Shown piece after piece: positions 19,168 through 60,846 of a DNA stretch of 64,000 nt (position 1 is the stretch's first letter; every line of letters starts with the position of its first letter). The stretch lies in NCBI GenBank assembly GCA_039800105.1, contig JBDLRI010000098.1, positions 4,427 to 68,426 of the forward strand, read 5' to 3'. A program made the translations under genes and the position numbers. The notes under the pieces were generated by a model. That model was not told where the DNA came from, did no database searches, and was given only the letters and a program-made list of their open reading frames with translations. This stretch comes from Pseudomonadota bacterium (GTDB lineage Bacteria > Myxococcota_A > UBA796 > SXON01).

Positions 19168-19848
19168 TTATCCGGCCGGCGCCGGCACGCCCGGTGGCGA
19201 GGCCCACGTTCCGCGATGCACGGGCAGGCCATCGCGCTTGCAGACCCGTTCGCGTCGCGACAGCACCGGCCCGTACCAGGGCGGCCCCTCGACCGCGGTC
19301 CACGACGCGAAGCAAGCGCACGCCCAGCGGAAATAGCCCTCGACGTCGGTGGCGAGGTGGACGACGCCGCCCGGCCGCAACACCCGCGCGAGGTCCGCCA
19401 CGAGGGCCGGCGTGAGCAGGAGGTGACGCGGGTTGCGCGTGGGCGTGGGAAAGAGGATGTAGGCGGCGTCGAGGCAGGCGTCCGGCAGGACCGCCGCCAG
19501 CACCGTGCGGGCGTCCGCGCGCACGAGCATGCAGTTTTCCGGCGCATGCGGCGCGGCGGCGAGCACCCGCGCCTCGCGGATCTCCAGGCCGAGCCACCGC
19601 ACGTCCGGGAAGCGGCGGGCGTGGTCGAGGATGCGCATGCCGTGGTCGAACCCGATCTCCAGCGCCACCCGGGGGGCGTTGCGGGGGGATGCCCCCCCGC
19701 CCCAGGAGGGGTCGACGAAGGACCGCACGGCGTCCCGCGTCGCGCGATGGGCGGGCTGATCGAACAGCAAGCTTCCCTGCAACGCACCGCGCACGCGGTC
19801 GCCGCTGGGATGGTCGAGCAGCGCGGGCGGTTCCCAGGGTTCGGTCAC
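19168..19848 (-). CDS. trmB: tRNA (guanine46-N7)-methyltransferase
   Basis: GTG start at 19848 with AGGAG upstream. Has VALEIGFDHG (SAM motif I), WLGLEIR, ILFPTP and VHLATD. Repeat copy 3 is inserted just before motif I (SWGGGASPRNAPR). Confidence 0.8.
   Translation of the reverse strand: MTEPWEPPALLDHPSGDRVRGALQGSLLFDQPAHRATRDAVRSFVDPSWGGGASPRNAPRVALEIGFDHGMRILDHARRFPDVRWLGLEIREARVLAAAPHAPENCMLVRADARTVLAAVLPDACLDAAYILFPTPTRNPRHLLLTPALVADLARVLRPGGVVHLATDVEGYFRWACACFASWTAVEGPPWYGPVLSRRERVCKRDGLPVHRGTWASPPGVPAPAG
19671..19704 (-). repeat. GC-rich hairpin repeat, copy 3
   Basis: + strand is GGGGGGCGTTGCGGGGGGATGCCCCCCCGCCCCA. Lies inside the trmB CDS. Confidence 0.9.
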
Positions 19849-28997: not shown

Positions 28998-30457
28998 GGG
29001 GGATCCACCACCCGGTGCGGTCCCAGTCCCGCCTGGGTGATCGCCGGCTCGACGACGGACGGGTCCCCGACGAGCACCAGCACGCCCCGCGCGGGATCGT
29101 AGGCCTGCATCGCGGTCCGGACCGCCTCTGCGCCGACCGAGGCGCCGGACTGGAGCGCGCGGTCCAGCTCGCCGGGCGGAAGCCGCGCGACGTGCAGCTC
29201 CGCGAAGAGCTGCGCGATGCTCTCCCGGCCCTCCAGCGCCTCCACGAGATCCTGACGGTACGACGCGCGCGCCTTGCGCAGCTCCTCGGAGGTGATGCCC
29301 TTGCGGATGCCCGCGAGCTCGCCGACGAGATCGACGAGCGCCGGGCCGGTCGCGTCGGCCCGCACGCGCGTGGTGATCGCCAATGCGCCGCCGCCCGGGA
29401 GCGACAGGGGCGCCGCCCGCACGCCGTAGGTGTAGCCTCGCTTCTCGCGGAGCAGCGCGTTGAGGCGCGAGGTGAAGGTGCCGCCGAGGACGACGGTGCC
29501 GATTCGCGCGGCGTCGGCCTCGGGCGCCCCGAGCGCGTGCCCGGGGAAGTACCAGGCGATCATGGTCTGCGCGGCGCCGGGCTTCGGCACGACGAGGGTC
29601 CGGATGGCCTCCGGGGTCGGCGGCGGCACCGCGGGGCGCGGACGTGTGCCCACGGCCCAGGGCGAACCGAGGCGCGGTTCGAGCAGGGCCACGATCTCCT
29701 CGCGGGCGACGTCACCGGCCACGGTGACCGTGGCGCCGTCGGCGTTCCAGGATTGCTTCCATCGGCCGCGCACGCTGGCCGCGTCCGCCGTCGAGAGACC
29801 GGACACCGTCCCGTCCGTGGGCCGGCCGTAGGGATGCGTGGCCCCGAAGGCGGCCGACCAGACGGTGCGCGTCGCGACGGAGACCGGCTCGTCGCGGTCG
29901 GCCACCAGTGCCGAGACGGCGAGCCCGCGCTCCCGGGCCACGTCCTTCCTGCCGAAGGCCGGGCGCAGGATCATGTCCGCGACACGGTCGAGCGCCTCCG
30001 GCAGGCTGGACTTCCGGACGGTGAGGGTCAGGGTCGAGGCACTCCGCCCCGTCTCGACCTCGACCGTGGCGCCGAGCCGCTCGAGCGCCGCGGTGAAGGC
30101 GGCGGCGTCCAGCGCGCCCGCCCCCTGCGTGAGCATGCGATCCGTGAGCCACTGGAGGCCCTCTCCGCCGGACGCGTCGAGCGACGAGCCGCCGGGAACC
30201 GCGACGACGACCGACACGAGCGGAAGGGACGGCCGAGGGACCACCCAGACGTCCACACCGTTGGAAAGCCGGGCCACCTCGGGCGTCGGCGCAGAGAACG
30301 GCGCCGCGGGGCGCACGGCCGGACGATCCGGAAACGCGGGCGCCTCGACGGGCAACGGGGGGGGCGTTGCGGAGGGGGTGCCCCCCTCCGCCCCGGAGGC
30401 CGGACCCAACGCAGGTTCGGCGTGGACGAGCGACGCGAGCAGGACGAGCAGGATCAC
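28994..30457 (-). CDS. M16-family peptidase subunit lacking the HxxEH motif (likely non-catalytic partner), secreted
   Basis: 487 aa. GTG start with a GTGA overlap. Signal-like N-terminus [14 protein letters not shown]16 C-terminal-type domains, but no HxxEH seen. Repeat copy 4 follows directly after the signal peptide (SGAEGGTPSATPPP). Confidence 0.8.
   Translation of the reverse strand: MILLVLLASLVHAEPALGPASGAEGGTPSATPPPLPVEAPAFPDRPAVRPAAPFSAPTPEVARLSNGVDVWVVPRPSLPLVSVVVAVPGGSSLDASGGEGLQWLTDRMLTQGAGALDAAAFTAALERLGATVEVETGRSASTLTLTVRKSSLPEALDRVADMILRPAFGRKDVARERGLAVSALVADRDEPVSVATRTVWSAAFGATHPYGRPTDGTVSGLSTADAASVRGRWKQSWNADGATVTVAGDVAREEIVALLEPRLGSPWAVGTRPRPAVPPPTPEAIRTLVVPKPGAAQTMIAWYFPGHALGAPEADAARIGTVVLGGTFTSRLNALLREKRGYTYGVRAAPLSLPGGGALAITTRVRADATGPALVDLVGELAGIRKGITSEELRKARASYRQDLVEALEGRESIAQLFAELHVARLPPGELDRALQSGASVGAEAVRTAMQAYDPARGVLVLVGDPSVVEPAITQAGLGPHRVVDPP
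30357..30395 (-). repeat. GC-rich hairpin repeat, copy 4 (GGAGGGGG/CCCCCTCC subfamily)
   Basis: + strand is GGGGGGGGCGTTGCGGAGGGGGTGCCCCCCTCCGCCCCG. Lies inside the M16 partner CDS. Confidence 0.9.
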
Positions 30458-36654: not shown

Positions 36655-38295
36655 ATGTCCCTCGCGGAGTTCGAGGAGGAGGTATGCGCGGGCACCATCG
36701 GCCCGGAGACGCCCGTGGACGCAGGCGCCGAGGTACTCCCCGCGCGGGAGCTCGCCGCCTGGCGCGCCGCCTGGGACAGCCCTGCCGCACGCGTGCGCCG
36801 CGCACTCGCGAACCCGGCGGTCCCCTGGGCCACGGCGCTCGTCGTCGGCATCCCGTGGCGCATCCACGCGTGGGTGATCGGCCGCGGACGTGAGGCGTGG
36901 GAGACGGCGCTGGTGAAGCTCCCCGCCGCCATCACCGAACGCGGGGAGGCCTGGCGGGTGGTGTCCTACGCGCTGCTGCACGGGGACGTGGGACATGCGC
37001 TCAGCAACCTCCTCTTCCTGGCGCTGTGCGGGGTCGTGCTGGAGACCATCGTGGGGCCGTGGGCCCTGCTCGGGCTGTTCACGGTGAGCGTGGCGGCCGG
37101 CGGACTGCTCTCGACGCTCGGCAGCGACACCCCGGCACTCGGCGCCTCGGCCGCCGATTTCGGCTTCCTCGCGGCGACCGCGATCGCCGGGTGGCGGTAC
37201 GGCGATCTCGCGCCACGCCGGCTGCGGCCGCTGCTCGGCGGAATCATGGCGGTGTACCTCATCCAGGCGCTCTGGAACGGGCTTCACGACACGCACGTGG
37301 ACAACCTCGCGCACCTGGGCGGCGCGTTGGCGGGCGGCGCGCTCATGGCGGCGCTGCGTCCCGCGGCGCTGCCGGAATGGCGTCGCCGGAACCGGGTCGC
37401 GGTCGCGACGGCGCTCGCGGTGTGCGCCGTGACGACGTGGGCCGTGGTGCGCTGGCCCACGCCGCGGGTGGCGGTCGACGAGGACGGCCTCGTCGCGGAG
37501 CGTCCGGCCCGGTGGGGCGTGGGCTACGCGCCGAGCGGCGCACGCGCCTGGGCCTCCCCGCTCGGGGATGCGTGGATGGTCGTGACCACGCGCGACGCCG
37601 GACGTCTCCCCACGCCGGACGAGGACCTCGTGCAGGAGACGCTGCGCCCGTTCAAGGACGCGCGCGTCACGACGTCGACCGGCCGCGCGGATTCACCGGA
37701 GGGCGTGCGCGTCGTGGCCCGCTACACGCGGCGCGACGGCCCGCGGCGGCTGGTGCTGCGCGCGTGGACGCGCGGGCACCTGCGGCACGAGGTCTCGCTC
37801 GACCTGCCGGCCGACGACTCGCACCGGGCCCATCTCGCCGCCCTGGTGGACGCCGCGCGGCTGGTGCCGCCGGACGCGGTGACCGAGGCCGCCACGGCGC
37901 CGGACACCGCGCGCGGGGACGTGGCGCGCGCGCGGGCCGCGTCGAACGCCGGCGACCTCCCGGCCGCGGTGCGGTCCCTCGATGCGGCGCGCACCCGGGC
38001 GCCGGGCGACGTGGTCGCGTGGGTCGCCACCCTCGAGGTGCTCGGCGAATGGCGGGATCCCCGGGCACTGGCGATGGCGGACGACGCGATCGCGCGGTTC
38101 CCCGACGACCGACGCGTGACGGTGGCGGCCACATCCGCGCTGCACGCGCTGGGCCACGCCGACCGCGCCGCCACGCTGCTCCGGGAGGCCTGGGCCGCGC
38201 ACACGGGCGACGCCGACCTCGCGGCGGCCGCGGAGGCGCTGGACGTCGACCTCGCCCGGACGGGGGCGTTGCGGGGGATGTCCCCCGCCCCATGA
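36655..38295 (+). CDS. Rhomboid-family intramembrane serine protease fused to a TPR-like C-terminal region
   Basis: Start at ATG 36655 (MSLAEFEEE). Has WRVVSYALLHGDVGHALSNLLFL, GASAADFG (GxSxxxF catalytic Ser) and AHLGGALAG (catalytic His). Ends with repeat copy 5 (GALRGMSPAP-stop). Confidence 0.75.
   Translation: MSLAEFEEEVCAGTIGPETPVDAGAEVLPARELAAWRAAWDSPAARVRRALANPAVPWATALVVGIPWRIHAWVIGRGREAWETALVKLPAAITERGEAWRVVSYALLHGDVGHALSNLLFLALCGVVLETIVGPWALLGLFTVSVAAGGLLSTLGSDTPALGASAADFGFLAATAIAGWRYGDLAPRRLRPLLGGIMAVYLIQALWNGLHDTHVDNLAHLGGALAGGALMAALRPAALPEWRRRNRVAVATALAVCAVTTWAVVRWPTPRVAVDEDGLVAERPARWGVGYAPSGARAWASPLGDAWMVVTTRDAGRLPTPDEDLVQETLRPFKDARVTTSTGRADSPEGVRVVARYTRRDGPRRLVLRAWTRGHLRHEVSLDLPADDSHRAHLAALVDAARLVPPDAVTEAATAPDTARGDVARARAASNAGDLPAAVRSLDAARTRAPGDVVAWVATLEVLGEWRDPRALAMADDAIARFPDDRRVTVAATSALHALGHADRAATLLREAWAAHTGDADLAAAAEALDVDLARTGALRGMSPAP
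38262..38292 (-). repeat. GC-rich hairpin repeat, copy 5
   Basis: + strand is GGGGGCGTTGCGGGGGATGTCCCCCGCCCCA, overlapping the TGA of the rhomboid gene by one base. Confidence 0.9.
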
Positions 38296-38314
38296 CACGA
38301 CGAAGAAGCGCCGG

Positions 38315-42593: not shown

Positions 42594-45500
42594 ATGCGGC
42601 GCGTCTCCGTCCTCCTCGGCCTCCTGCTCGCGCGTGCCGCGGCGGCCGCCGACTACGACCCCGGGCTGCGCTGGAGGACCCTGCAGACCGAGCACTTCCG
42701 CGTGCTGTTCCACGACGGCGAGGCTGCGCTGGCGCGGGACATGGCCACCCGGGCCGAGCAGGCCTTCGCGGCCCTCGCACCGACGGTCGGCGACGTCCCC
42801 GCGGAGCGCGTGGAGCTCGTGCTGGTCGACTGGACCGACGATGCCAACGGCTACGCCACGGTGGTCCCTCGCAACACGATCGTGGTGTTCGTCACCGCAC
42901 CGACCCCCGACTCGTCGCTCGGTTTCTACGAGAACTGGAACGAGGGCATCGTCACGCACGAGCTGACGCACATCCTGCACATCGACACGGTCGGCGGCCT
43001 GCCCCGGCTGGCCCGCACGCTGCTGGGACGAATCGTCAGTACGCACCAGGCCTCGCCGGGCTGGATCGTGGAGGGCTACGCCACCTTCGAGGAGACGCGC
43101 TTCACCAACGCCGGACGCGGACGGTCCGCGGTCGTGGACATGCTCAAGCGCGCCGCGGTGCTCGAGGACCGCTTTCCCCCGCTGGGCAACCTCGACGGGT
43201 TCCAGTCGAGGCCTCCCGGCGGACAGCTGCGGTACCTGTGGGGCCAGGACTTCCTGCGCTGGATCGCCGACCACGCCGGGGAAGACGCGTGGCGGGCCTG
43301 GGTCGACGCCTACGGCAGAGGCCTTCCCTACCTGCTGCCCGCACGGCGCCTGTTCGGCGGGTCGTTCGCGGAGCTCCACGCCGCATGGCGCGCCGACGCC
43401 GAGGCGACCGCCCGCGCGCAGGCCGACGCCATCCGGGCCGAGGGGACCACGGAGCCGCGCTGGTTGACTCCGCCCGGCCGGGCGTGCGGCAACGCCGCGT
43501 GGAAGCCGGGGACGTCCACCACCCTCGCGGTCGGGTGCAGCGATCCGCGGGAGGGCACCCACACCTGGGAGATCCACACCGACGCGACCCCCTCCCGGCG
43601 GCTCGTGAAGGGACTGACCGCGCGCCGCGTGGCCTGGCGCCCGGACGGAAAAGCGCTGGCCGTCGTGCGCACGCACGCCGTGCGGGTCTACAACCGCTTC
43701 GACGACGTGTACCTCTACGACCTCGCCGCACGGTCGCTCCGGCCCCTCACGCGCGACGCGCGGGCGACCGATCCCGCGTTCAGCGCCGACGGCGAGCGGG
43801 TCTACGTCGTGCAGAACGCCCTGCAGGACACGCGGGTTGCGCGCGTGTCCGCCGACCAGCGCCTCCTGCCGGTCCTCGGCAACCCCGACTTCGGCGCCCC
43901 CCGGGAGGACCAGGCGCCGCGGCCGATCCACCTCGCGGGTCCCGCGCCCAGTCCGGACGGCCGCCTGCTGGCCGTGAGCGCGTGGCGCGACGGCCTGCGC
44001 GATCTCTGGCTCACCACGGCCGACGGGGCGCCCGTGGCGCGCCTGACCGCCGACGCCGCGATCGACCGCGACCCCGCGTGGTCTGCCGACGGCGCCTGGC
44101 TCTACTTTTCCAGCGATCGCGGCGGAAAGCCCGACATCTACGCGCTGGAGGTGGCCACGCGCGACCTGTGGCGGGTCACGAACGTGCTGACCGGCGCGTG
44201 GGGACCGGCTCCCAGTCCCGACGGCACGCAGCTCGCGCTCACGGTGCACGGGACGGACGGGGCGCGCGTGGGGGTGCTTCCGATCGACCGCAGCAGGTGG
44301 ACCCCGCAGGGTCGGCTCCCGGACCTCGCCGGGGACACGCCGCTCCCCTCCCCGGCCGCGGACGCCGCACGGCCCGCGCCCGGCGTCGTGGCCGCGGACT
44401 CCGGCGGGGGCGTTGCGGGGGCAGCCGCCCCCGCCCCAGAGGACTACACCCCCTGGTCCACGCTGTTCCCGCCCCGGTGGTGGATGCCGGGCACCTTCCT
44501 GACCACCACCGGCGAGACGCAGGGCCTCTACGCGACGGCCTCCACCGGCGCGCGCGACACGCTCGGCTGGCTGGGCTACGGCGGCACCCTGACCTACCGC
44601 ACCGATGCCCGCTTCCTGGGCGGCAGCGGCTCGGTGAGCGTCAACCGCTGGCGCACCGTCGGCGCCGTGGGCGCCAGCACGGCGGCCTGGCCCTTCGGCG
44701 ACATCGTGCGGGCCGTGCCCGACCCGCCCGGTGGCGGCACCACGCTCCCCGGCATCGAGACGACGCGGCGCCGGTACTGGGAGCGTCGCACGCGCGCCTG
44801 GGCCAGCGTGGGCGCACCGCTGGACGAGACACGCGCGTGGTCGGCGGGGTGGTCGGGCACCTGGCGCAGCCCCCTCGATCCCCTGCCCGCGGACGCGTAC
44901 CATCCCGCGGTCCCGACGCGCGGCTACTTTTCGAGCGTGACGGCGGGCTGGCGCAGCGGCATCGCCATCTCCGCGCCACTGGCCATCTCCCCGGAGGACG
45001 GCCGCAGCCTCGCCGTCGGCGTGCAGGCGACGTCCTCGCTGCTGGGCAGCCGCACCTTCGACGATACCGGCGCCACGGTCCCCTTCGACCAGCTCCAGGC
45101 CACCGCGGAGGGCCGCTGGTTCACGCCGGTTCCCCGCCTTCCCAACCACGTGATCGCCGCGCGGCTCGCGGGCGGCGCGTCCCTCGGGGACCGCTTCCGC
45201 TACGGCAGCTTCCGGCTCGGCGGCAGCTTCACGGAGGGCGGGCTCACGGTGGTGCCCACCGAGTGGCGCATGCTGCGCGGCTTTCGGCCCGCCACGGCGA
45301 GCGGCGAATGGTACTGGCTGGGCTCCGGGGAGTACCGCTTTCCCCTCGCGCGTCCGGACCGCGGCTTCGGCATCCTGCCCGCGTTCCTGCGCAACGTGAG
45401 CGGGGCGGCGTGGGTCGACGCGGGCGATGCCTTCAACGCGCCCGACGAGGCCAGCGCGGCGTCCACCCTCGTCGGCGTCGGCATGGAGCTGCGCGCGCAG

Positions 45501-45630: not shown

Positions 45631-47664
45631 ATGCACATGTTGACCCTGCTGTTCCTGCTCGGACTGCCTCCTGGGGCGGAGGGGGCCACCCCCTCCGCAA
45701 CGCCTCCCCCGCTCGCATGGCAGGACGCCAACGCCGCGGGGGACTGCACCGGCGTCCTTGCGGCCCTGCCCGCTCCGGGCACCGTCCTGGAACGCCTCGC
45801 CGCCGGCGACTGCCTCGCGCGGACCGGGCATCCGGCCCGTGCCCTCGCCCTGCTCGGCGACCCCGCGGGGCCGGCGGGAGTCTTCCGGCCGTGGGTGCGC
45901 CTCGCCCGCGCCCGGGCCCTCCTGGCGCTGGAGCGCCCGGCGGACGCGGTGGCCGCGCTCGACGGAGTGACCCTCGCCGGCTCGGAAGCCACGCTGCTGC
46001 GCGGCGAGGCCCTGGTCCGCGCCGGACGCGGAGGCGAGGCCCGGGAACCGCTGCGCGCCCTGCTCGACGGCCCCGATGCCGCCCCGGCGCGGGCGTGGCT
46101 CGCGGAGGGGGCCGCCCGACGCGGGGACACCGAGGCCGCCGTGGCCGCCTGGCGTGCCGTGTGGACGCGGCATCCCACCTCGCCGTGGTCCGCACGTGCC
46201 GAGTCGGCCCTCAAGGCACTGGGCGCGCCCGTGCCGGACACCGCGACGGACGCCGGCCGCGCCCTCGTGCGGGCACGGGCGGACGCGCTGCTCGCGCAGC
46301 GGCAGGCCAGCCTCGCGCTGCCGCTGCTGCGGGAGTTGGACGCGCGCGTGCCGTTCACCACGGACGCCGACGCACGCACGATGGCCCAGGCCTGCGCGGA
46401 CGCCCGCCAGCACGCCGACGCGCTCGCGTGGCACGCCCGCGCCGGTTCCGCCACGCGTTCGGCCGCGCAGGCCTTCGCCGAGGCGCTCGCGACCGCGCGT
46501 TCCGGCGACTATGCCGCGGCAGCCGCGCGCTACCGCGCCCTCGCCGCGCGATGGCCCGACTCGCCCCAGGCCGACGAGGCCACGTGGAAGATCCCGTGGA
46601 TGGACTACGACGCCGGTCGCTTCGCCGACGCCGAGGCGGGCATGGACTCCTACCTCGCGGCGCGGCCCGGCGGCCGCTTCGCCAGCGACGCCCGGTGGTT
46701 CCGGGCCTGGGCCGCGTGGCGGCGCGGAGACGTCGCGGCGGCGCTTCCCCGCCTGGAGGCCGTCCGCGCGGCGGAACCGGGCTCCGAACGCGCCACCGCC
46801 GCCGCCTACTGGATCGCCCGCGCGCGGGAGGACCGTGCGAGCCTCCGGGCGCTCGTCGCGACCGACACGCTCTACGGCTACCTCGCGGCGGAGCAGCTCG
46901 GGGTGCGCTTCCCCGTCCCGCCCGAGGCCCGTGCGCCCGCGGTGCCGGAGGCGTTCCTGGCGGCGCGGCCGGAGCTGCGCACCGGGATCGCCCTCGCCGA
47001 CGCCGGTTTCGCGGCATGGTCGCGGCCCCTGCTCGCCCGGCACGTGGACGCCGCGCGCGCGGCCGGGGAGACCACCGCCGTCGCGCTGGCGCACGCGCTC
47101 CTGCGCGCGGAGGACTTCAAGGGAGCACAGGCGCTCGCGCGTCCGTACTGTTCCCGCTCCCGTGCGGCCGCCACCGCCTGCCTGCCCCGGCCGCACGGGG
47201 GCGCCGTCGCGGCGATGGCGGCCCGCACGGGCCTCCCGCCGCTGCTCCCCTACGCCATCATGACGGTGGAGAGCGGGCTGGACCCGGGCGTCACCTCCCC
47301 GGTGGGGGCGCGCGGCCTCATGCAGCTCATGCCAGAGCTGGGCGAGCGCCTGGCGACGGACGAGATCGCCGGGTTCGGCATCGATGACCTCTACCGCGCG
47401 GGCGTGAGCGCGCGCCTCGGCACCAAGGAGCTCGGGCGCATGTACGCGGAGCGCCGTGACGGCCCCGTGCGACCGGTGCTCCCGCTCGTCGTCGCCGGCT
47501 ACAACGGCGGCCCGCCGGCGGTGGAGCGCTGGCTGCGCGGCTACGCGGAGCCACCCGCCGCCGACCGCTTCGCCGAGGACATCGCCTTCACCGAGACCCG
47601 CCGCTACGTGCGTCGCGTGCTCGGCGTCTACATGCAGTACCGGCGCACCTACGGCGATCCCTGA
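45631..47664 (+). CDS. slt: Soluble lytic murein transglycosylase (Slt70-like: superhelical N-domain + SLT domain)
   Basis: 677 aa with a signal-like N-terminus. SLT catalytic region IMTVESGLDP...ARGLMQLMP...AGYNGGP. Repeat copy 7 follows directly after the signal peptide (PGAEGATPSATPPP). Confidence 0.85.
   Translation: MHMLTLLFLLGLPPGAEGATPSATPPPLAWQDANAAGDCTGVLAALPAPGTVLERLAAGDCLARTGHPARALALLGDPAGPAGVFRPWVRLARARALLALERPADAVAALDGVTLAGSEATLLRGEALVRAGRGGEAREPLRALLDGPDAAPARAWLAEGAARRGDTEAAVAAWRAVWTRHPTSPWSARAESALKALGAPVPDTATDAGRALVRARADALLAQRQASLALPLLRELDARVPFTTDADARTMAQACADARQHADALAWHARAGSATRSAAQAFAEALATARSGDYAAAAARYRALAARWPDSPQADEATWKIPWMDYDAGRFADAEAGMDSYLAARPGGRFASDARWFRAWAAWRRGDVAAALPRLEAVRAAEPGSERATAAAYWIARAREDRASLRALVATDTLYGYLAAEQLGVRFPVPPEARAPAVPEAFLAARPELRTGIALADAGFAAWSRPLLARHVDAARAAGETTAVALAHALLRAEDFKGAQALARPYCSRSRAAATACLPRPHGGAVAAMAARTGLPPLLPYAIMTVESGLDPGVTSPVGARGLMQLMPELGERLATDEIAGFGIDDLYRAGVSARLGTKELGRMYAERRDGPVRPVLPLVVAGYNGGPPAVERWLRGYAEPPAADRFAEDIAFTETRRYVRRVLGVYMQYRRTYGDP
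45672..45710 (+). repeat. GC-rich hairpin repeat, copy 7 (GGAGGGGG/CCCCCTCC subfamily)
   Basis: TGGGGCGGAGGGGGCCACCCCCTCCGCAACGCCTCCCCC. Differs from copy 1 only in the loop. Confidence 0.9.
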
Positions 47665-52246: not shown

Positions 52247-54502
52247 ATGGCGCCGTCGCCGCTGCACGCGCGCGCCCATGCACGGCGACTGGCCACGCGG
52301 CGCATCCTCGCGCGGGTTCTCGGTTCCACCGCCGCGGGCGCGTGGGACGACGCGCTCGCATACGCCACCACGTCCCGCCCGAATCTCGCGGAGCGCGTGG
52401 AGCGGGGGCTGCCCGGCATGCTCGCGCGCTTCCCGCCGGCGCGACACGTCGAGGCCGGCGCGCTGCTCCGGGAGGTCCTCGCGTCGCGGCCCGATCTGCT
52501 CGACGTGGCGCTCGAGGAGCTCCCGGAGCTGGCGCTCGGGATGGACCCGCCGGCGCTGGGGCGTTTCGTGCGCCACGCGCTCCGCCAGCGTGACGCGGGC
52601 GCCTGCCTGGCGCGGGCCACGTCGCGCGCGGTCGCGTCCGCCCACGCAGCGACCGGAACCGTGCCGCTCGAGGCGCTGCGGCCGATGCTCGCGCGCTACA
52701 TCGCGGCGCATGCCGGGGTGCCCGTGCGCCTCGAGGAGGGGGCCCCCGGCCTGCCGCGCCCCACCCACGTGGCGCTGCCGGCGCACATCGAACTGGGCCC
52801 GGGCCGGGAGGAGGAGGCGCGCGCGCACTACCTCGGCCTCGCGCTGCTCGCGGCGGCGCACCTCGAGTTCGGCAGCCGCACCCTGAGGCTCGACACCCTG
52901 GGCCCGCCCGACGGCGGTGCCTGGCCCGACGCCCACGACGGCGAGGACACGCTCGACGTGTTCCTGCGGGCCTTTCCGATGCCCTCGCTGGCGCGGGATC
53001 TCTACGAGGCGGTGGAAGGTGCGCGCGTGCTCCGTGCCGTGCGGCAGCGGTACCCCGCCGCGGCCGAGCGCACGGCCGCCGCACGTGCGTGGGCGCTCGC
53101 CCGGCGTGCTCCGTCGCCCCTCACCCCGCGACTGGATGCGCTGGTTCGTGGGGCGGGGGGGCATCCCCCCGCAACGCCCCCCGCGTCGGGATCCGACGAT
53201 GTCGCGGTGCAGGCCTGGGTCGCGCGCTGGGGTCCCGGGTTCCATGCGGCGCGCGACGGTACCGCGGAGGACTCGGCACGCTGGACCGCACGCGTCTACG
53301 CGGAGGCGCAGGCCAGCCTCCCACGCGCCCCGCACCGCGCGACGCCGGCCCCTCCCCCAACGGCCACGCCTCGTCCGGGCCGACCCGCCGCGCCGCGGGA
53401 CCTGCGGCACCCCGCGCCCCCGGCCGCGCCGCACGTGCCCCACGCACCACGCAGCACCGCCGGGGACGCTGACGCCATCGACGCGGAGGACGGGCGAGGC
53501 GCGTTCGTGGAGCGCCACCGTGACCCCGCGGCGACGCGCACCGCGACGCGTGCGCCCGGCTCCGAGCCGCTCCGGGAGCTTCCGACGGTCGGAGAGGCGG
53601 TGGTGACGATGCTCCCGGAGTGGGATTGCGAACTCGGGGACCACCGTCCCGACTGGGTGCGCGTCGTGGAGCGCCGCGTGGCGCCGGGTCCCCGCGCGTT
53701 CGCCGACGACGTGCGCCATCGGGAGGCCGCACGGATCGACCGGCTCCGTCGTGCCTTCGAGGCGCTCCGACCGGACGCACGCGCCCGTCGGCGGCACGAA
53801 CCCGACGGGGACGACCTCGACGTCGACCGCGCCGTCGAGGAGGCCCTCGGACGGCGCGCGGGCGCGCCGCTGCCGTCGCGCGCCCACGTCCGCACCGTGC
53901 GGCTCACCCGGGACGTCGCCATCGGCTTCCTGCTCGACGTCAGCAGCTCGACGAACGAGAGCCCCGACGGCTCGGGCGCGCGCGTCATCGACGTGCAGCG
54001 CACGGCCCTGATCGTGGCGGGGGACGCGCTCGCGGCCTCGGGGGACCCGTTCGCCGCGTGGGCCTACTCGGGCGCGGGCCGCGGCCGCGTGGACGTGTAC
54101 GTCGCGAAGGACTTCCACGATCCCTGGGACGACCTCGCCGCCCGCCGCGTCGGCGCCCTTCGCCCGAGCATGGAGAATCGAGACGGCGCCGCAATCCGCC
54201 ACGCCGCGCGACGCATGGCCGCGGCACCCGCCCGCCACCGACTGCTCGTGGTGCTCTCCGACGGGCGGCCGCTCGACTGCGCCTGCCCCGTGTACCGCGA
54301 CCGCTACGCGGTGGAGGACACCCGCGCCGCCCTCCGAGAGGCGCGGGCCATGGGCGTGCATCCCTTCTGTGTGACGGTCGACGCGCAGGCGCGCAGCTAC
54401 CTGGCGGACATGGCGGGCACGGTGTCCTACACGGTGATCGAGCGCGCCGATCAGCTCCCGGAGCGCCTGGTCGACGTGGTGCGGCGGCTCACCGCGCGCT
54501 GA
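52247..54502 (+). CDS. CbbO/NorD-like protein with C-terminal von Willebrand factor A domain
   Basis: 751 aa. Has LPEWDCELGDHRPDWVRVVE, the CbbO/NorD signature. The VWA domain has the MIDAS-like motif LLDVSSSTNES and later LVVLSDGRPLD. Repeat copy 8 lies in the N-terminal region (RGAGGHPPATPPA). Confidence 0.8.
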   Translation: MAPSPLHARAHARRLATRRILARVLGSTAAGAWDDALAYATTSRPNLAERVERGLPGMLARFPPARHVEAGALLREVLASRPDLLDVALEELPELALGMDPPALGRFVRHALRQRDAGACLARATSRAVASAHAATGTVPLEALRPMLARYIAAHAGVPVRLEEGAPGLPRPTHVALPAHIELGPGREEEARAHYLGLALLAAAHLEFGSRTLRLDTLGPPDGGAWPDAHDGEDTLDVFLRAFPMPSLARDLYEAVEGARVLRAVRQRYPAAAERTAAARAWALARRAPSPLTPRLDALVRGAGGHPPATPPASGSDDVAVQAWVARWGPGFHAARDGTAEDSARWTARVYAEAQASLPRAPHRATPAPPPTATPRPGRPAAPRDLRHPAPPAAPHVPHAPRSTAGDADAIDAEDGRGAFVERHRDPAATRTATRAPGSEPLRELPTVGEAVVTMLPEWDCELGDHRPDWVRVVERRVAPGPRAFADDVRHREAARIDRLRRAFEALRPDARARRRHEPDGDDLDVDRAVEEALGRRAGAPLPSRAHVRTVRLTRDVAIGFLLDVSSSTNESPDGSGARVIDVQRTALIVAGDALAASGDPFAAWAYSGAGRGRVDVYVAKDFHDPWDDLAARRVGALRPSMENRDGAAIRHAARRMAAAPARHRLLVVLSDGRPLDCACPVYRDRYAVEDTRAALREARAMGVHPFCVTVDAQARSYLADMAGTVSYTVIERADQLPERLVDVVRRLTAR
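53149..53182 (+). repeat. GC-rich hairpin repeat, copy 8
   Basis: TGGGGCGGGGGGGCATCCCCCCGCAACGCCCCCC. Lies inside the CbbO/NorD-like CDS. Confidence 0.9.
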
Positions 54503-55145: not shown

Positions 55146-55457
55146 ATGACGACGGACCTTCTCGACCTTCGACCGATCTCCCTGCTGGCGACCCCGTCCG
55201 ACGATGCGTTCGACGACGACCCCGCCGACGACGAGGAGGTCTTCGACGACGACGACTTCGATGACGACGATGTCTTCGAGGATGACGAGGAGGACGACTG
55301 GGACGCGGAGGAGGACGGCGACTCCGACGACGACCCGGAGTCGGAGGACGACGACGACGACGACGAGGACGACGAGGACGACGAGGACGACGAAGGGGAC
55401 GAGGACGACGACGACGATTGGGAGGACGAGGACGACTGGATCGTCGAGGGCGGGTAG
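55146..55457 (+). CDS. Hyper-acidic low-complexity protein (about 65 of 103 residues Asp/Glu)
   Basis: MTTDLLDLRPISLLATPSDDAFDDD...DDEDDEDDEGDEDDDDDWEDEDDWIVEGG. It has an ordinary N-terminal 20 aa, ATG start, GC-rich GAC/GAG codons, and same-strand position 10 nt after the preceding gene. The antisense frame is a poly-Ser artefact. Confidence 0.5.
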   Translation: MTTDLLDLRPISLLATPSDDAFDDDPADDEEVFDDDDFDDDDVFEDDEEDDWDAEEDGDSDDDPESEDDDDDDEDDEDDEDDEGDEDDDDDWEDEDDWIVEGG

Positions 55458-55482
55458 GGCCGTGTCGCGCCGACCGGGCCCT

Positions 55483-58400
55483 TCATCGGAAATCCCGGCT
55501 CCGCGCAGGTAGCCGGGGAATCTGCGGCACGGCCCGAATGCCCTGCGCGAGCACGCTGACCGCCGCCCCCTGGCGCTGGACGATGCCGGAGATCCGGAGG
55601 TACGGCTCGCCGCGGACCACGCTTCGGCGGCGCTCGTAGAGCGTCGGCCACACCACCACGTTGGCCGTGCCGGTCTCATCCTCCAGCCCGAGGAACACCA
55701 CCCCCGAGGCCGTTCCGGGTCGCTGCCGGTGCGCCACGAGGCCGGCGATCTCCACGCGCGTGCCGTGCGCGAGCCCGGAGAGGCCGGCCAGGGAGATGAC
55801 CCCCTCGTGCGTGAGTTGCGCGCGTACGATCCCGAGCGGATGCTCCCCGACGTCAAGGCCCACGGCGCCGTAGGCCTCCCGGAGCGCCTCGAACGGTGCC
55901 ATGGGCGGAAGCTCCACGTCGCAGGACGGCTCGATCCCCGCGAACAGCCCGGCGTCGAGCGCCCCGACCGCCCACGCCGCCGTACGCGACGAGGGAGCTT
56001 CCAGCAGGCCGTCGAGCGCCCCGGCGCGGGCCAGCCGACGCAGGACTCCCCGCCCGAGGCCGGTCCGACGCGCGAGGTCCGCGAGGCCCGAGAAGTCGCG
56101 GACGTGCCGTGCGGCCACCACCCGCTGCCCGTCCTCCGCCCCCAGGCCGCGGACCATCCGCAGCCCGAGCCGCAACGCGGGGCCGTCCACGCCCCCCTCC
56201 AGGGAGCAGTCCCACGACGACGCCCGCACGTCGACCGGCCGCACCTCGACCCCGTGGCGCTGGGCATCCGCGACGAGGGAGCGCGGGGCGTAGAACCCCA
56301 TCGGCTGGCTGTCGAGCAGGGCCGCGCAGAACGCCGCCGGATGGTGCGTGCGAAGCCACGCGGACACGTAGACCAGATGGGCGAAGGAGGCGGCGTGGGA
56401 CTCCGGGAATCCGTACTCCGCGAACCCCTGGATCTGGGCGAAGATCTGGGCGGCATAGTCCTCGGGGATCCCGTTCGCCCGCAGACCGGCCTGGAGCCGC
56501 TCCCCGATGGGACCGAGCGCGCCGCGGCGTCGCCAGGCGCCCATGGCACGACGGAGCTGGTCCGCCTCTCCCGGCGTGAAGCCACCCACCGCCACGGCCA
56601 TCGCCATGACCTGCTCCTGGAAGATCGGGACCCCGAGCGTGCGTGCCAGAATCGGCTCCAGGCGGGGATCCACGTAGGAAACCTCCTCCTCCCCGGCGCG
56701 GCGGCGCAGGTAGGGGTGGACCATGCCGCCCTGGATCGGGCCCGGCCGCACGATCGCCGTCTCCACGACGAGATCGTAGAAGCACCGGGGTTTCAGTCGC
56801 GGCAGCATGCCCTGCTGGGCCCGGCTCTCGACCTGGAACACACCCGTCGAATCGGCCGCGCAGAGCAGCTCGTAGACCGCCGGGTCCTCGCGCGGGATGG
56901 ACGCGAGATCGAGCTGGACGCCGTGAAAGGCGCGCACGTGGTCGAAGGCGCGCCGGATCGCCGTGAGCATCCCGAGCGACAGGAGGTCCACCTTCACGAA
57001 CCCGAGCGCGTCCACGTCGTCCTTGTCCCACTGCAGCACCGTGCGCCCCTCCATGCGGGCGGGCTCGATGGGCGCGCGGTCGCACAGGGGCGGGTCGGAG
57101 ATCACGAAGCCGCCCACGTGGACGGAGGTGTGCCGGGGCGCCCCCTGCAGCTGCGCGCACATGGTGTGGACATGGACCACGCGCGGATCGTCGGGATCGA
57201 AACCGGCCTCGCGCAGCCGCACGGGATCGGGGGGGCCGCGGCGTCCGTGGTCGAGCAGTCCGGCCAGGTGCTCCACGCGCTCGGCGTCGAGGCCCATCGC
57301 GCGCCCGACGTCCCGCACCGCCGAACGCCCCCGCCAGCGGATCACCTCGTTCACCATGGCGGCGCGGTCGCGCCCGTAGCGTTCGTAGACGTACTGGAGC
57401 ACCTCCTCCCGCCGCTCGTGCTCGAAGTCGATGTCGATGTCGGGCGGCTCCCCCCGCTCCTCCGAGATGAACCGCTCGAAGAGCAGGGACTGATGCGCAG
57501 GATCGACGGAGGTGACCCCCAGGACGAAGCACACCGCGGAGTTGGCCGCGCTGCCCCGTCCCTGGCACAGGATCCCGCGTTCGCGCGCGAACCGGACGAT
57601 GTCGTGCACGGTCAGGAAGTAGGACGCGAACCCGAGGCGCTCGATGATCCCAAGCTCGTACGCGACCTGCCGCGCCACCGACGCGGGCGGTCGACCGGCA
57701 TAGCGGGCATGCATCCCGCGACGGCACAGCTCCCGAAGCCAGCCCGACGGGGTGTAGCCGCCCTCCCCTCCCCCGCCGGGGACCACCTCCTGCGGGTACA
57801 CGTAGGAGAGCGCCTCCATCGAGAACGTGCACTGCTCCGCGATCCCGACCGTGCGTTCAAGGAGGGCGGGCCAGGCGTGGAACAGCCGCGCCATCTCCTC
57901 CGGCGACTTCAGGTACCGCTCGGCGTTCGGGGCGAGGAGCCTTCCTGCGCGGGCCAGGGTGGTCCCGCGACGGATGCAGGTGAGCACGTCGAGCAGATCC
58001 CCGCGGGATGCGTCGTGGGCCAGCACGTCTCCGACCGCGACCGCGGGGATGCCCAGCGCTTCGGCCTCCTCCACCAGGGCGCCGACCCGCGCCTCCTCCC
58101 CGGGGGCGAGGCTGCGCGACACCGCGCGGTAGACCCGTTCCGGCGCGGCCTCCCGCAGCTCCGCGAGGCGGGACGCGGGCCAGTCGCCGCGCGGCAGCAG
58201 GATCAGCCCGTCCGCGTCCTCGCGTACCCGCGCGTAGGAGAGCGAAGGGTGGTCGCGGTCGGCGGCCCTCGCCTCCCCGATCCAGCGGCACAGGCGCGCC
58301 CAGCCCCCCGCATCGCGCACCAGCACGCCGAGGGAGCGCAGCGTCCCGGGTGCCTCCCCCTCCGGCATCCGCACGGCGACGAGCGCCCCGTGGAGGGCCC

Positions 58401-58584
58401 GGAATCCCGGCCCTCCCGCGCGCACGGCCTTGTGGAAGGCGACGCTTCCGTAGAGCCCGTCCCGATCGGTGAGCGCCATCCCCGCGAGACCCAGCGCCCG
58501 CGCCTGCGTCACCAACTCCTCGGGCGACGACGCCCCCTCGCGGAAGCTGAAGTGCGACCGCGCGAGCAGCTCCACGTGGGCCAC
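55483..58584 (-). CDS. dnaE2: Error-prone DNA polymerase III alpha-like subunit DnaE2
   Basis: The C-terminal 1033 codons of the 1680-aa track ORF. Begins VAHVELLARSHFSFREGASSPEELV...LTDRDGLYG (PHP domain). Has the polymerase core (GRGSAANSAVCFVLGVT, DIDIDFEH) and an OB-fold C-terminus. The start at GTG 58584 is inferred, because the frame is open upstream into imuB. Confidence 0.88.
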   Translation of the reverse strand: MAHVELLARSHFSFREGASSPEELVTQARALGLAGMALTDRDGLYGSVAFHKAVRAGGPGFRALHGALVAVRMPEGEAPGTLRSLGVLVRDAGGWARLCRWIGEARAADRDHPSLSYARVREDADGLILLPRGDWPASRLAELREAAPERVYRAVSRSLAPGEEARVGALVEEAEALGIPAVAVGDVLAHDASRGDLLDVLTCIRRGTTLARAGRLLAPNAERYLKSPEEMARLFHAWPALLERTVGIAEQCTFSMEALSYVYPQEVVPGGGGEGGYTPSGWLRELCRRGMHARYAGRPPASVARQVAYELGIIERLGFASYFLTVHDIVRFARERGILCQGRGSAANSAVCFVLGVTSVDPAHQSLLFERFISEERGEPPDIDIDFEHERREEVLQYVYERYGRDRAAMVNEVIRWRGRSAVRDVGRAMGLDAERVEHLAGLLDHGRRGPPDPVRLREAGFDPDDPRVVHVHTMCAQLQGAPRHTSVHVGGFVISDPPLCDRAPIEPARMEGRTVLQWDKDDVDALGFVKVDLLSLGMLTAIRRAFDHVRAFHGVQLDLASIPREDPAVYELLCAADSTGVFQVESRAQQGMLPRLKPRCFYDLVVETAIVRPGPIQGGMVHPYLRRRAGEEEVSYVDPRLEPILARTLGVPIFQEQVMAMAVAVGGFTPGEADQLRRAMGAWRRRGALGPIGERLQAGLRANGIPEDYAAQIFAQIQGFAEYGFPESHAASFAHLVYVSAWLRTHHPAAFCAALLDSQPMGFYAPRSLVADAQRHGVEVRPVDVRASSWDCSLEGGVDGPALRLGLRMVRGLGAEDGQRVVAARHVRDFSGLADLARRTGLGRGVLRRLARAGALDGLLEAPSSRTAAWAVGALDAGLFAGIEPSCDVELPPMAPFEALREAYGAVGLDVGEHPLGIVRAQLTHEGVISLAGLSGLAHGTRVEIAGLVAHRQRPGTASGVVFLGLEDETGTANVVVWPTLYERRRSVVRGEPYLRISGIVQRQGAAVSVLAQGIRAVPQIPRLPARSRDFR

Positions 58585-60171
58585 GGGGGCTCCGGCATGC
58601 CGCGATCGCTTCTGGGGCGGGGGCTCGGGCCGCCCCCGCAACGCCCCGGCCACCCCGGCGTCGAACCATCCGTGCAGGAACCAGGCTTCTCCCGAGCGGA
58701 AGACCCACGCGCGGCGCTCTCCCACCGCAACACACCAGTAATCGCGGGTCCAGCCCGGGAGACCGTCGCGCCCCTCGCGCCCGCCCACCAGGCGCTCGGG
58801 CCCGTCGGCGCGCAGGATCCCCAGCCAGGCACCTCCGAGCTGGATCGCCACGGGTCGCTCCTGCGGATCGCGGCGCACCCGCACCACGACGGGCTCCCGA
58901 CACAGGACCGCCGGGCGCGGGCGTGCCTCCGCCGGCGCGAGATGCGCCTCCGCGGGGTCGGGCCGCAGGGGGGACTCCCCGGTCTCCTCCGGGGGTGCAT
59001 CGGCCGAGGCCCACGGGCGGAAGCGCCATTCGGCGTCCGGGGTCCAGCTGCTGCAGGGCTCCCACACGCCCACCGCGTCGGTCCCGAGGGCATCCTGAAG
59101 GCGCGCGCACACCTCCGGGAGCGGCTCCTGCGCCTCCGGGCGGTCCAGGAGGCCGAGCTGCACGGGCGCGTGGGCCACGTCACCACACAACCCGACCTCC
59201 ACGGCCACGACCGGTGCCTGGAGCCGCACATGCTCCAGGCGGGCGCGGACCAGCGGAAACAACCGCTCCACGCTGCGTGCGGGGCGTCCGAGCCGCACGG
59301 CGACGTGGACGGTCGGCGACGCTCCCTCCAGCTCCAGGGCGAGCTCGAGCCGCACGGCGGAGCGTCCGGCGCGGACGAGATCCCGCGCCAGGTCCCGCAG
59401 GAGGGCGTGCACCACGAAGATCACCGCGTCGAGCTGCTCCACGGGCTCCAGGAGATCCGTGCGGTGGCGGAGCGCCTCCACCGGCCGCACCACGAGAGGA
59501 GCGACCGGGAGCCGTGGCCCCGGGTCCCCCCGCGCGCGGGCGTGCAGCGCCACGACGGCGGCGCCGTGGCGTCGCACCAGCACCGCGGCGGGCAGCCGCG
59601 CAAAGGCGCCACAGGTCCGGACCCCGGCCAGCTCGAGGTCCGCACGCAGCTCCGCGGGCAGATCGAGCACCTCGACCGGCAGCGGTGCCAGGACCCCGGG
59701 GAGCGCCTCCGCCGACACCACCGCGTCGGCGTCCAGGCTCCGCGCGAGCAGGAGGGCCTCGTCCGGACCGGGAGCGTGCACGATCCGGGCGCGATGCCCG
59801 AAACCCTCCAGCTCCGCACGCACCGCCGGGCCGACCTCCGGACCCGCGTCGAGGCAGAGCCCGTCCGGGGGTTCGACCCGCACGACGGGGCCATGACGCT
59901 CGAGCAACCTCCCGAGCGCGCGCAGGTCCTCGCGGACGCCCTCCGGATCCAACGTTTCCACATGCACGTCCGGCACCAGCGCGCGGGCGGTGGCGAGGCT
60001 CATGCCCGGCGCCAGCCCCGATGCGCCCGCGCGCAGGCTCGTCGCAAGGACCCGGGGAGCCCCGCGCGTCATCGCCACGACCACGACCGGCGCATCGGGA
60101 AGCCAACCGCCCCGCTCCAGCACGAACCCCGGCAGGTGGATGCCGAGACAGCCGCCGCGTCCCTGCGTCAC
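58585..60171 (-). CDS. imuB: ImuB, Y-family-polymerase-like protein; no stop codon of its own, reads through into dnaE2
   Basis: GTG start at 60171 (GTGA overlap with the imuA stop). Has CLGIHLPGFVLERG...VVVVA....RVLATSLRAGASGLAPGMSLATARAL (Y-family palm-like N-terminus without obvious catalytic acidic residues) and ends ...GEAWFLHGWFD. A 25-codon linker containing repeat copy 9 follows. Confidence 0.78.
58613..58647 (+). repeat. GC-rich hairpin repeat, copy 9 (at the imuB/dnaE2 junction)
   Basis: TGGGGCGGGGGCTCGGGCCGCCCCCGCAACGCCCC. On the coding (minus) strand it is read as GVAGALRGRPEPPPQ. Confidence 0.9.
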
Positions 60172-60827
60172 GCACGGCCTCCCCGGGGGAAGGCGAGCAC
60201 GCGCGGCGCGGCCGGTTCCTCCGCGTGGAGCGCCACGACGCGTTGCTCCCCGGCACGCCCGCGCCGGTGCTGCACGCAATGGACCCGCACCCCCGACTCC
60301 CCGGCCCAGCCCTCCACGAGGAGTCGACAGGTTGCGGGCAGCGCCGGATCTCCACCCTCGACGACCGAGAACACCGTGCAACGACCGGCCTCGGCCGCGC
60401 GGGCGAGCCGCAACCCCGCGCGCCCGAGGCGCGGCATCCCGACGAGCAGTACGGCACCGACGGCACCGGAGCGCGCCACCTGTTCCGCGGACCATGCGGC
60501 CCGCATCCCGCCAGGACGCACCCACACGACGTGCGCGTCCGCGCAGCCGGAAACACAGCCCGGATGCAACTCTCCGGAGGCGTCCACGACACAGGCGGCC
60601 TCACCGCTCCGCCGCAGGGCCGCGAGTGCGGGAAGGACGAGTGCCAACCGGCCGCTGCCGGGCGCGCCCGCGATCTCGATCAGCCCCGGACGCGCCCACG
60701 GCCCGAGCCATCGCTCCAGCGCGGGCAGTCCGCAGTCCAGGCCCGCGTCCCGGAACCGCGAGGAATCCAGGGCGGCCGCACCGTAGCGCTCCCGCAACGC
60801 ATCCAACGACAGGGGTTGTCGACCCAT
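60168..60827 (-). CDS. imuA: ImuA (RecA/SulA-like induced-mutagenesis protein)
   Basis: 219 aa. LIEIAGAPGSGRLALVLPALA is a degenerate RecA-like P-loop. First gene of the imuA-imuB-dnaE2 cassette. Confidence 0.75.
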   Translation of the reverse strand: MGRQPLSLDALRERYGAAALDSSRFRDAGLDCGLPALERWLGPWARPGLIEIAGAPGSGRLALVLPALAALRRSGEAACVVDASGELHPGCVSGCADAHVVWVRPGGMRAAWSAEQVARSGAVGAVLLVGMPRLGRAGLRLARAAEAGRCTVFSVVEGGDPALPATCRLLVEGWAGESGVRVHCVQHRRGRAGEQRVVALHAEEPAAPRVLAFPRGGRA

Positions 60828-60829
60828 GA

Positions 60830-60846
60830 CCTGAACATACGTCCAG
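60830..60846 (-). promoter_or_regulatory. Candidate LexA (SOS) box immediately upstream of imuA
   Basis: The minus strand reads CTGGACGTATGTTCAGG. It matches 15 of 17 positions of the Myxococcus xanthus LexA motif CTRHAMRYBYGTTCAGS (recalled from memory). It also fits the CTG-N10-CAG imperfect palindrome. Confidence 0.45.

Follow-up and report, generated by a model that had tools for sequence, protein, structure and literature searches.

A single open reading frame joins imuB and dnaE2 in a clade of uncultured bacteria, with a hairpin repeat in the linker of one lineage

The canonical imuA-imuB-dnaE2 cassette, or mutasome, of Mycobacterium, Caulobacter, Pseudomonas and Myxococcus has three components in this order, with imuA translationally coupled to imuB and a LexA-box-like site upstream. 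Its ImuB is an inactive Y-family polymerase homologue which carries a clamp motif, a RecA-NT-like segment and an ImuB-C domain ending in HGWFD. Counterparts of these features, with imuA and the LexA-box-like site as candidates, are found in the DNA analyzed here, a stretch of 64,000 nucleotides of contig JBDLRI010000098.1 (assembly GCA_039800105.1) which stems from a freshwater metagenome and is called the window in the following. The one departure from the known cassette is the covalent linkage of ImuB and DnaE2: in the described systems both are separate, encoded contiguously or in a split arrangement, whereas here they form one polypeptide with a linker predicted to be disordered.

To our knowledge, what is known of the architecture of the mutasome comes solely from genetic work, two-hybrid data and AlphaFold models, and we know of no reported experimental structure of an ImuB-DnaE2 complex. 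A study from 2019 named ImuB-C as the prime candidate for DnaE2 binding (PMC6511836), and the most extensive interface predicted between ImuB and DnaE2 is that of ImuB-C with the PHP domain (PMC12926913). An ImuB-DnaE2 fusion is not mentioned in these two systematic surveys (text searches of PMC6511836 and PMC12926913) and was not found by a full-text literature search, in agreement with the first-pass annotation of the window, according to which the three genes are separate in described cassettes. Both surveys used complete or reference genomes, and the fused clade reported here is known from metagenome-assembled genomes (MAGs) only. The fusions that do appear in this literature are ImuB itself, as a proposed fusion of PolY and ImuB-C (PMC6511836), and DnaQ-DnaE1 fusions (PMC12926913).

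On the minus strand of the window a single open frame leads from the imuB GTG at position 60171 to the dnaE2 stop at 55483; it comprises 1562 codons, has no stop at the junction, and is part of a stop-to-stop open reading frame (ORF) at 60600..55483. The junction (58800-58400 read, 60525-55483 translated, minus strand) has the order ...RSGEAWFLHGWFD, AGVAGALRGRPEPPPQKRSRHAGAP, VAHVELLARSHFSFREGASSPEELV..., and the junction peptides of the fused chain are ...FLHGWFDAGVAGALR and HAGAPVAHVELLAR. The calculated mass of the 1562-residue product is 168.6 kDa. The missing stop and the fused frames had been pointed out by the first-pass annotation, with which sequence and translation agree letter for letter, and the product it derived from GTG 60171 is the same as that predicted by the gene callers in two assemblies. 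At a GC content of 74% many frames are open, so that an open frame by itself is weak evidence. The observation carries weight because ImuB and DnaE2 homology share this one frame, and because independent assemblies as well as relatives show the same arrangement.

The C-terminal 1033 residues of the fusion represent a full-length DnaE2. They reach 1281 bits with the NCBIfam model of the error-prone polymerase (NF004225, cutoff 939) compared to 640 bits with the DnaE1 equivalog NF004226, which lies under its cutoff of 1002, and they match the Pfam families PHP, DNA_pol3_alpha, DNA_pol3_finger, HHH_6 and tRNA_anti-codon (OB). Position 4 of NF004225 aligns with the Val of GTG 58584.

In the ImuB part only a weak match to Pfam IMS was obtained (E 5e-4), and a sequence search of the PDB with this part gave no match. 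At E<=1e-3 it has 3960 homologues, most of them ImuB proteins of 500-550 amino acids with HGWFD as their end, and its ImuB-C domain is homologous to more than 100 ImuB proteins with this ending. The Y-family catalytic motifs are absent in a MAFFT alignment with E. coli DinB as reference: at DMD there is a substitution or a gap (HLPGF), and DE is changed to DG (PPDGLCLD). Towards the C-terminus QLGLLD is followed by LPEVCARLQDALGTDAV and then by ImuB-C, and the pattern Qxx L[LF]D is kept in the clade.

The fusion is not confined to the window. A search with the whole chain yielded seven further proteins covering both halves (P0002-P0008, 1546-1709 amino acids, 54-65% identity), compared to separate DnaE2 matches, none of which exceeds 52% identity. 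GTDB species representatives were scanned as well, and a tblastn and ORF check of the loci located the fusion at four of them, L001 (= P0003), L002, L003 (= P0008) and L004; L002 is a Lake Erken MAG with 63% GC and the shortest linker, 19 residues. When the ImuB half was compared by HMMER to 1.84 billion cluster representatives, dozens of ImuB proteins of 500-550 amino acids (35-42% identity) were found to end exactly at ...HGWFD, and the only longer matches were P0106 (1627 amino acids, fused) and P0105, which is cut off in the linker. A stop after HGWFD is clearly the ancestral end of ImuB as judged from these sequences, and the ImuB segment of the window, said before to end in ...HGWFD, does so at the exact stop point of the unfused proteins.

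The fused set consists of P0002-P0008, P0106, L002 and L004, all in frame, and of P0105 with its truncation. The 11 other fused lineages share 43-47% identity with the window in ImuB and 52-62% in DnaE2. All of P0002-P0008 align in the order W[FWYM]L[HR]GW[FL][DE], then a variable and mostly Pro-rich linker, then (R)YAELVCRSNYSF. The linker sequences are unrelated, and their length ranges from 23 to 66 residues in P0002-P0008 and from 19 to 66 over all fused relatives. By comparison, at loci with imuB at most 200 nucleotides upstream of dnaE2 a stop was present between the genes in 31 out of 31 cases, and both genes were in the same frame in 10 of these 31, approximately the one third expected by chance. 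The frame of the fused genes has survived many changes of linker length, which we regard as the mark of selection for a junction that is translated throughout.

Neighbour-joining trees were calculated for the DnaE2 half and the ImuB half separately. Both trees unite the fused sequences in a single clade and agree on the branching within it, where L002 takes the basal position and the window is joined with P0002. Closest to this clade from outside stands P0009, an unfused dnaE2 from a split cassette. Judged from these sequences, the fusion arose once and was passed on to each of the 12 lineages sampled (that of the window and 11 others).

Some further observations concern the fused sequences and their counterparts. 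The fused gene of L004 (CALQBK020000018.1) lies on a contig with 70% GC whose record names it a 'Bifidobacterium breve' MAG, which is almost certainly a mistake made in binning or labelling. A second and unrelated fusion type of approximately 1300-1460 amino acids (P0087-P0099, P0092, P0103; one labelled Verrucomicrobiae) joins a Y-family polymerase of approximately 410 residues (Pfam IMS + IMS_C) directly to DnaE2; it lacks ImuB-C and has no similarity to the window's ImuB. Unlike ImuB, these proteins retain the catalytic motifs (HLDADAFF, SIDEGY) and may hold two active polymerases per chain. Finally, P0016 (L084:4001-8476, Logan SRR22383272) is an apparently independent ImuB-DnaE2 fusion of 1491 residues in another DnaE2 lineage, with a 214-residue RecA_N-like imuA upstream and a different ImuB end (...GAWHV) followed by a helical-looking linker; it comes from one assembly only, and an error is possible.

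The linker of the window contains a copy of a repeat. Nine copies of the repeat core GGCGTTGCGGRGG are present in the window compared to 1.25 expected (maximum of 6 in 100 shuffles), and the ninth core copy is found at 58633-58645 on the minus strand. The first-pass annotation described the linker as being largely this repeat, which holds for its presence and overstates its extent: approximately 13 of the 25 linker codons, about half, are encoded by it. The repeat, a member of a REP-like family, has no stop codon in any of the six frames. Its hairpin folding energy is not better than that of shuffles at this GC content; folding thermodynamics alone are therefore no evidence, and the stem variants among the copies, which are compensatory (G-C to A-T), are more informative. 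The window was scanned in full against Rfam without a match, so that the repeat corresponds to no described RNA, and for it no transposase or target duplication was found; its distribution alone would point to mobility.

In metagenome assemblies the family is represented by at least 120 matching stretches (L086-L165 and further loci). GC content by codon position and stop-to-stop ORFs were ambiguous for several copies, with many frames open, and the coding status was judged by domain matches, translations and a strict test of the GC content at third codon positions in both flanks (GC3). According to this test 13 out of 116 metagenome copies are 'coding-through' compared to 325 out of 605 random positions, i.e. 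the family is mostly intergenic. Nine of the 13 coding-through copies are read in one antisense frame (..GAEG..PSATPPP / GAGGHPPATPP), a small sample which hints at a preferred tolerated reading frame. Within the window, copy 2 lies near the C-terminus of an aldehyde dehydrogenase whose PDB alignments end just before the element, a rhomboid-domain ORF takes its final codons and its TGA from copy 5 (..TGALRGMSPAP*), copy 6 separates the PD40 part from the Omp85-like part in an ORF of 1038 codons, copy 7 comes directly after the signal-peptide-like beginning of an ORF with an SLT domain, and copy 8 is within a 751-residue ORF which is also gene-called on the contig L082.

The comparison with relatives speaks to the order of events. 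The junction DNA of five fused relatives (L001-L004 and L085, the locus of P0002) contains no repeat, and L001-L004 have no copy anywhere in their loci; the fused relatives known as protein only have linkers unlike the repeat-encoded peptide. Because other lineages are fused, the junctions read lack the repeat and the other linkers do not resemble it, the fusion predates the repeat. Earlier it had been proposed that the insertion may have replaced the imuB stop and the spacer; L001-L004 and L085 contradict this, lacking the repeat at the junction and yet being fused, and they belong to the eleven fused lineages other than that of the window. L085, the sister lineage and closest distinct relative, has one copy of the family downstream and one inside its own DnaE2 coding region. 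The internal copy translates as VWGGGSTPATPPEP and lies on the margin of a surface insertion, approximately 95 residues long, which no other DnaE2 has. This insertion in P0002 (L085:5393-5690) is located between the HhH and OB regions and starts with an antisense repeat copy. Judged from the comparison, the repeat in the window's linker would be a later, lineage-specific and tolerated in-frame insertion.

A further hint arises from structure prediction. ImuB-C, linker and PHP domain were modeled together by AlphaFold2 from an alignment of 19 sequences, with the predicted local distance difference test (pLDDT), the predicted template modeling score (pTM) and secondary structure as output. The values are listed in Table 1 together with the other features. 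A flexible tether leading from the end of ImuB-C to the beginning of PHP is what would be expected of a fusion between contacting domains, and the earlier remark that a covalent fusion is mechanistically plausible fits the predicted contact of ImuB-C and PHP (PMC12926913).

Table 1. Features of the fused locus and of the repeat family (window coordinates unless residues of the fusion are given; AF2, AlphaFold2; RBS, ribosome-binding site)
Feature	Position	Strand	Remarks
LexA-box-like operator candidate CTGGACGTATGTTCAGG	60830..60846	-	ends 2 nt 5' of imuA ATG
imuA, 219 aa, RecA-like accessory protein	60168..60827	-	NF033429 match below the curated cutoff
ImuB part of fusion, residues 1-504	58660..60171	-	inactive Y-family polymerase homologue; end ...FLHGWFD
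Clamp-motif-like QLGLLD in ImuB part	59160-59143	-	assigned by inspection
RecA-NT-like segment in ImuB part	59121-59065	-	assigned by inspection
ImuB-C beta domain	about 58923-58660	-	homology and predicted structure
25-codon linker AGVAGALRGRPEPPPQKRSRHAGAP	58585..58659	-	located where the ancestor had the imuB stop and the spacer
Repeat copy 9, GC-rich hairpin GGGGCGTTGCGGGGGC-loop-GCCCCCGCCCCAG, translated ..GALRGRPEPPPQ	58613..58651	-	inside linker
GGAG-N5-GTG, candidate internal RBS and DnaE2 start	58582..58593	-	GGAG 58593-58590, 5 nt 5' of GTG 58584
Second in-frame GTG	58575-58573	-	
DnaE2 part with its stop codon (PHP, polymerase core, fingers, HhH, OB)	55483..58584	-	
AF2: ImuB-C	fusion residues 425-504		six-stranded all-beta, pLDDT 80-95
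AF2: linker	fusion residues 505-525		unstructured, pLDDT 34-38
AF2: PHP domain	from about residue 533		well folded, pLDDT about 90
Other eight repeat copies	9326-9364, 14257-14295, 19671-19709, 30359-30397, 38261-38299, 44405-44443, 45670-45708, 53144-53182		

It may be asked whether the fused frame is an assembly or sequencing artefact, with a true stop or frameshift hidden in the high-copy repeat and imuB and dnaE2 separate. The Logan short-read de Bruijn contigs from eight runs of freshwater metagenomes are all interrupted within the repeat. Read depth there is 1500-2650 compared to approximately 25 in the flanks (60-100 times higher), the lower-coverage runs yielded nothing decisive, and one low-depth contig of run X6 diverges beyond 58651. 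Against this stands that the contig ends from both sides tile the repeat: they overlap at 58622-58641 with no mismatch, no indel and no stop, and no single contig spans the whole element. The exact protein of the window appears in a protein cluster table on a 71.5-kb contig, and a second strain encodes a protein of 1562 residues on a 13.9-kb contig (JGI sample 3300059473 = GCA_041443065.1) with 5 residue differences, none of them in the linker, so that the contigs of two strains give an identical in-frame linker. A third assembly, L082 (JGI 3300043427), has its first base within the repeat and matches the window without difference over the dnaE2-side half of the repeat and downstream of it. 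Relatives without the repeat are fused as well. An assembly artefact is very unlikely as the source of the fusion, and we give next to no credence to it. A little more, still marking it as highly improbable, may be granted to the proposal that the repeat made the fusion, i.e. that a mobile hairpin landed in the spacer between imuB and dnaE2, removed the stop and joined the frames. The mostly intergenic location of the family would suit such an event, as would an element free of stops in every frame which covers approximately half of the linker. It is opposed by the eleven other fused lineages, the five junctions read without repeat and the dissimilar linkers, by the monophyly of the fused clade in both halves, and by P0002/L085, which has the repeat family elsewhere, none at its junction, and is still fused.

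A different objection accepts the fused ORF and holds the proteins to be functionally separate, DnaE2 being made mostly by initiation at GTG 58584 or 58575 or released by cleavage of the linker, with the read-through chain as a minor product. The combination GGAG-N5-GTG does stand at the canonical DnaE2 N-terminus, a disordered linker is possibly protease-sensitive, and a gene caller (JGI) picked GTG 58575 for a 1030-residue 'DnaE2'; this call was made on the L082 contig only, because that contig starts inside the repeat. Internal initiation at these two codons had been named in the first-pass annotation as the route to a separate DnaE2, and indeed both GTGs exist in frame and a GGAG lies upstream, but the arrangement is not conserved, as a start codon at this place is missing from most relatives. 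In P0004, P0006, P0007, P0008/L003 and L004 the codons for YAEL, or RYAEL, are preceded by those for P, A, R or G, and no ATG, GTG or TTG occurs near the DnaE2 N-terminus; with no start codon, DnaE2 would be made there only as a fusion. Moreover, at 74% GC both GTG and GGAG often arise by chance, the frame was kept through many changes of linker length, which is needless if only separate products mattered, and no promoter- or terminator-like site was seen in 58200-59200 by a scan that is uninformative at this GC content and for this taxon. Functionally separate proteins are in our opinion unlikely, and the product that acts in the cell is probably the single chain.

We are fairly confident that imuB and dnaE2 are one gene which was fused in the ancestor of the clade, and that the repeat is secondary. 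The locus would then be a two-gene operon of imuA and imuB::dnaE2, probably behind a LexA-type operator, in which the catalytically dead Y-family scaffold ImuB is tethered via a short disordered linker to the N-terminal PHP domain of DnaE2. In the clade ancestor the stop after ...HGWFD was lost and the short spacer turned into the linker, and the fusion was kept in frame since. The fused chain would fix the ImuB:DnaE2 ratio at 1:1, hold ImuB-C beside the PHP surface of the predicted binding, and couple the polymerase permanently to the clamp and the ImuA adaptor. The most parsimonious order starts with the fusion, followed by an expansion of the repeat family in the subclade of the window and P0002 and by the entry of one copy into the linker of the window's lineage, where it could be tolerated because the linker is unstructured and the repeat is free of stops in all frames. 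On balance, and with less assurance, we lean towards an extension of this reading to the whole clade: an obligate single-chain mutasome core without free DnaE2, whose linker was colonized in frame by a coding-compatible hairpin family, as Rickettsia palindromic elements do.

Several points weigh against the fusion as an ancestral gene with a secondary repeat. Conservation is what the case for translation as one chain rests on, a search for RNA runs that contain the region having found none, and the plausible internal start at GTG 58584 in this strain makes some free DnaE2 possible. The breaks of all Logan contigs inside the repeat concern the junction itself, and every fused member is metagenome-assembled. 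No closely related genome with an 'empty site' was found, and the insertion of the repeat is proposed by parsimony across relatives of approximately 60% identity. The neighbour-joining trees have no support values, and over ImuB-C the alignment used for AlphaFold2 is shallow, with 8 sequences.

With respect to the operon, the imuA ORF matches the ImuA_translesion model NF033429 with an E-value of 2e-17 and 63.7 bits, below the curated cutoff of 150 bits, and has a faint RecA match. Its TGA overlaps the imuB GTG (GTGA), and the same overlap of 4 nucleotides between imuA and the fusion gene is present in L001, in L085 and on the 13.9-kb contig. Directly 5' of the imuA ATG a palindromic CTGRACGTAYGTTCAG is found in the window and in L001, and L001 has the perfect palindrome CTGAACGTACGTTCAG at the place equivalent to the operator candidate; at the loci L002 and L004 no LexA-like palindrome was seen. 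The candidate CTGGACGTATGTTCAGG agrees at 15 of 17 positions with CTRHAMRYBYGTTCAGS, which we take to be the LexA box of Myxococcus; this motif and the named neighbours are hints of an affiliation with Myxococcota. A LexA-like palindrome in front of imuA suggests a control of the operon by the SOS response.

Other sequences were noted at both ends of the locus. Farther 5' of the LexA-like box lies a second half-site-like sequence, CCTGAACGCGGTTTGAT (60909-60893, minus strand), with CCTGAACGAGGTTCGGAT at a similar distance in L001, and a separate palindrome, CCGGACAGATTATGTCCGG, is located at 60888-60870 (minus strand). Convergent with the dnaE2 stop is an extremely acidic (Asp/Glu-rich) ORF of 103 residues (55146-55457, plus strand), which explains the repeat family D1 with its periodicity of 9/18 nucleotides at 55193-55473. 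A gene is called at the position of this ORF also on L082 and on the 13.9-kb contig.

A fusion that has persisted over deep divergence would be independent evolutionary evidence that ImuB and DnaE2 act as a 1:1 unit, that no more than a short tether separates the C-terminus of ImuB-C from the N-terminal PHP domain of DnaE2 (19 residues in the shortest linker), and that free DnaE2 is dispensable. If true, a natural 'Rosetta-stone' fusion independently supports the predicted contact of ImuB-C and PHP, and the naturally linked 1:1 construct may be suggested for biochemistry or cryo-electron microscopy. It also lengthens a proposed series, in which PolY and ImuB-C gave ImuB, and ImuB was then joined to DnaE2. 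The fused lineages are uncultured, and fusions of interacting partners are common in evolution; we consider the finding useful rather than startling.

As to the repeat, the first-pass annotation drew an analogy to MIRU elements, which are tandem units of 40-100 bp with small ORFs that extend into the stop and start codons on either side. What is alike is a repeat at a junction inside an operon. The analogy fails in that the element here is a single, non-tandem and dispersed hairpin of approximately 39 nucleotides, without stop or start codons at its ends, and the flanking genes were already fused. A further comparison is that with REP-like or MITE-like palindromic repeats inside genes, for example the Rickettsia palindromic elements, which were reportedly described by Ogata et al in 2000. 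They share the short dispersed hairpin, a mostly intergenic location and a minority of copies read through in frame at linkers or termini. The element of the window is much shorter (about 31-39 nucleotides) and extremely GC-rich, and it is likened to them by description, not by sequence.

As to the fusion, two groups of described systems may be placed beside it. The split variants (Kyrpidia-type and 'DnaE2X' modules; PMC6511836, PMC12926913) present the PolY core, ImuB-C and DnaE2 modules in other covalent arrangements. They combine an inactive or active PolY with a standalone ImuB-C and DnaE2 and are more split than the canonical cassette, whereas the system of the window is more fused and goes one step further. 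Fusions of C-family polymerases with an accessory protein, i.e. DnaQ in PolC or joined to some DnaE1 (PMC12926913, PMC3919608), are alike in that a PHP-binding partner is separate in some lineages and covalently attached in others. There the partner is a proofreading exonuclease; here it is a scaffold which serves translesion synthesis as adaptor to the clamp and ImuA.

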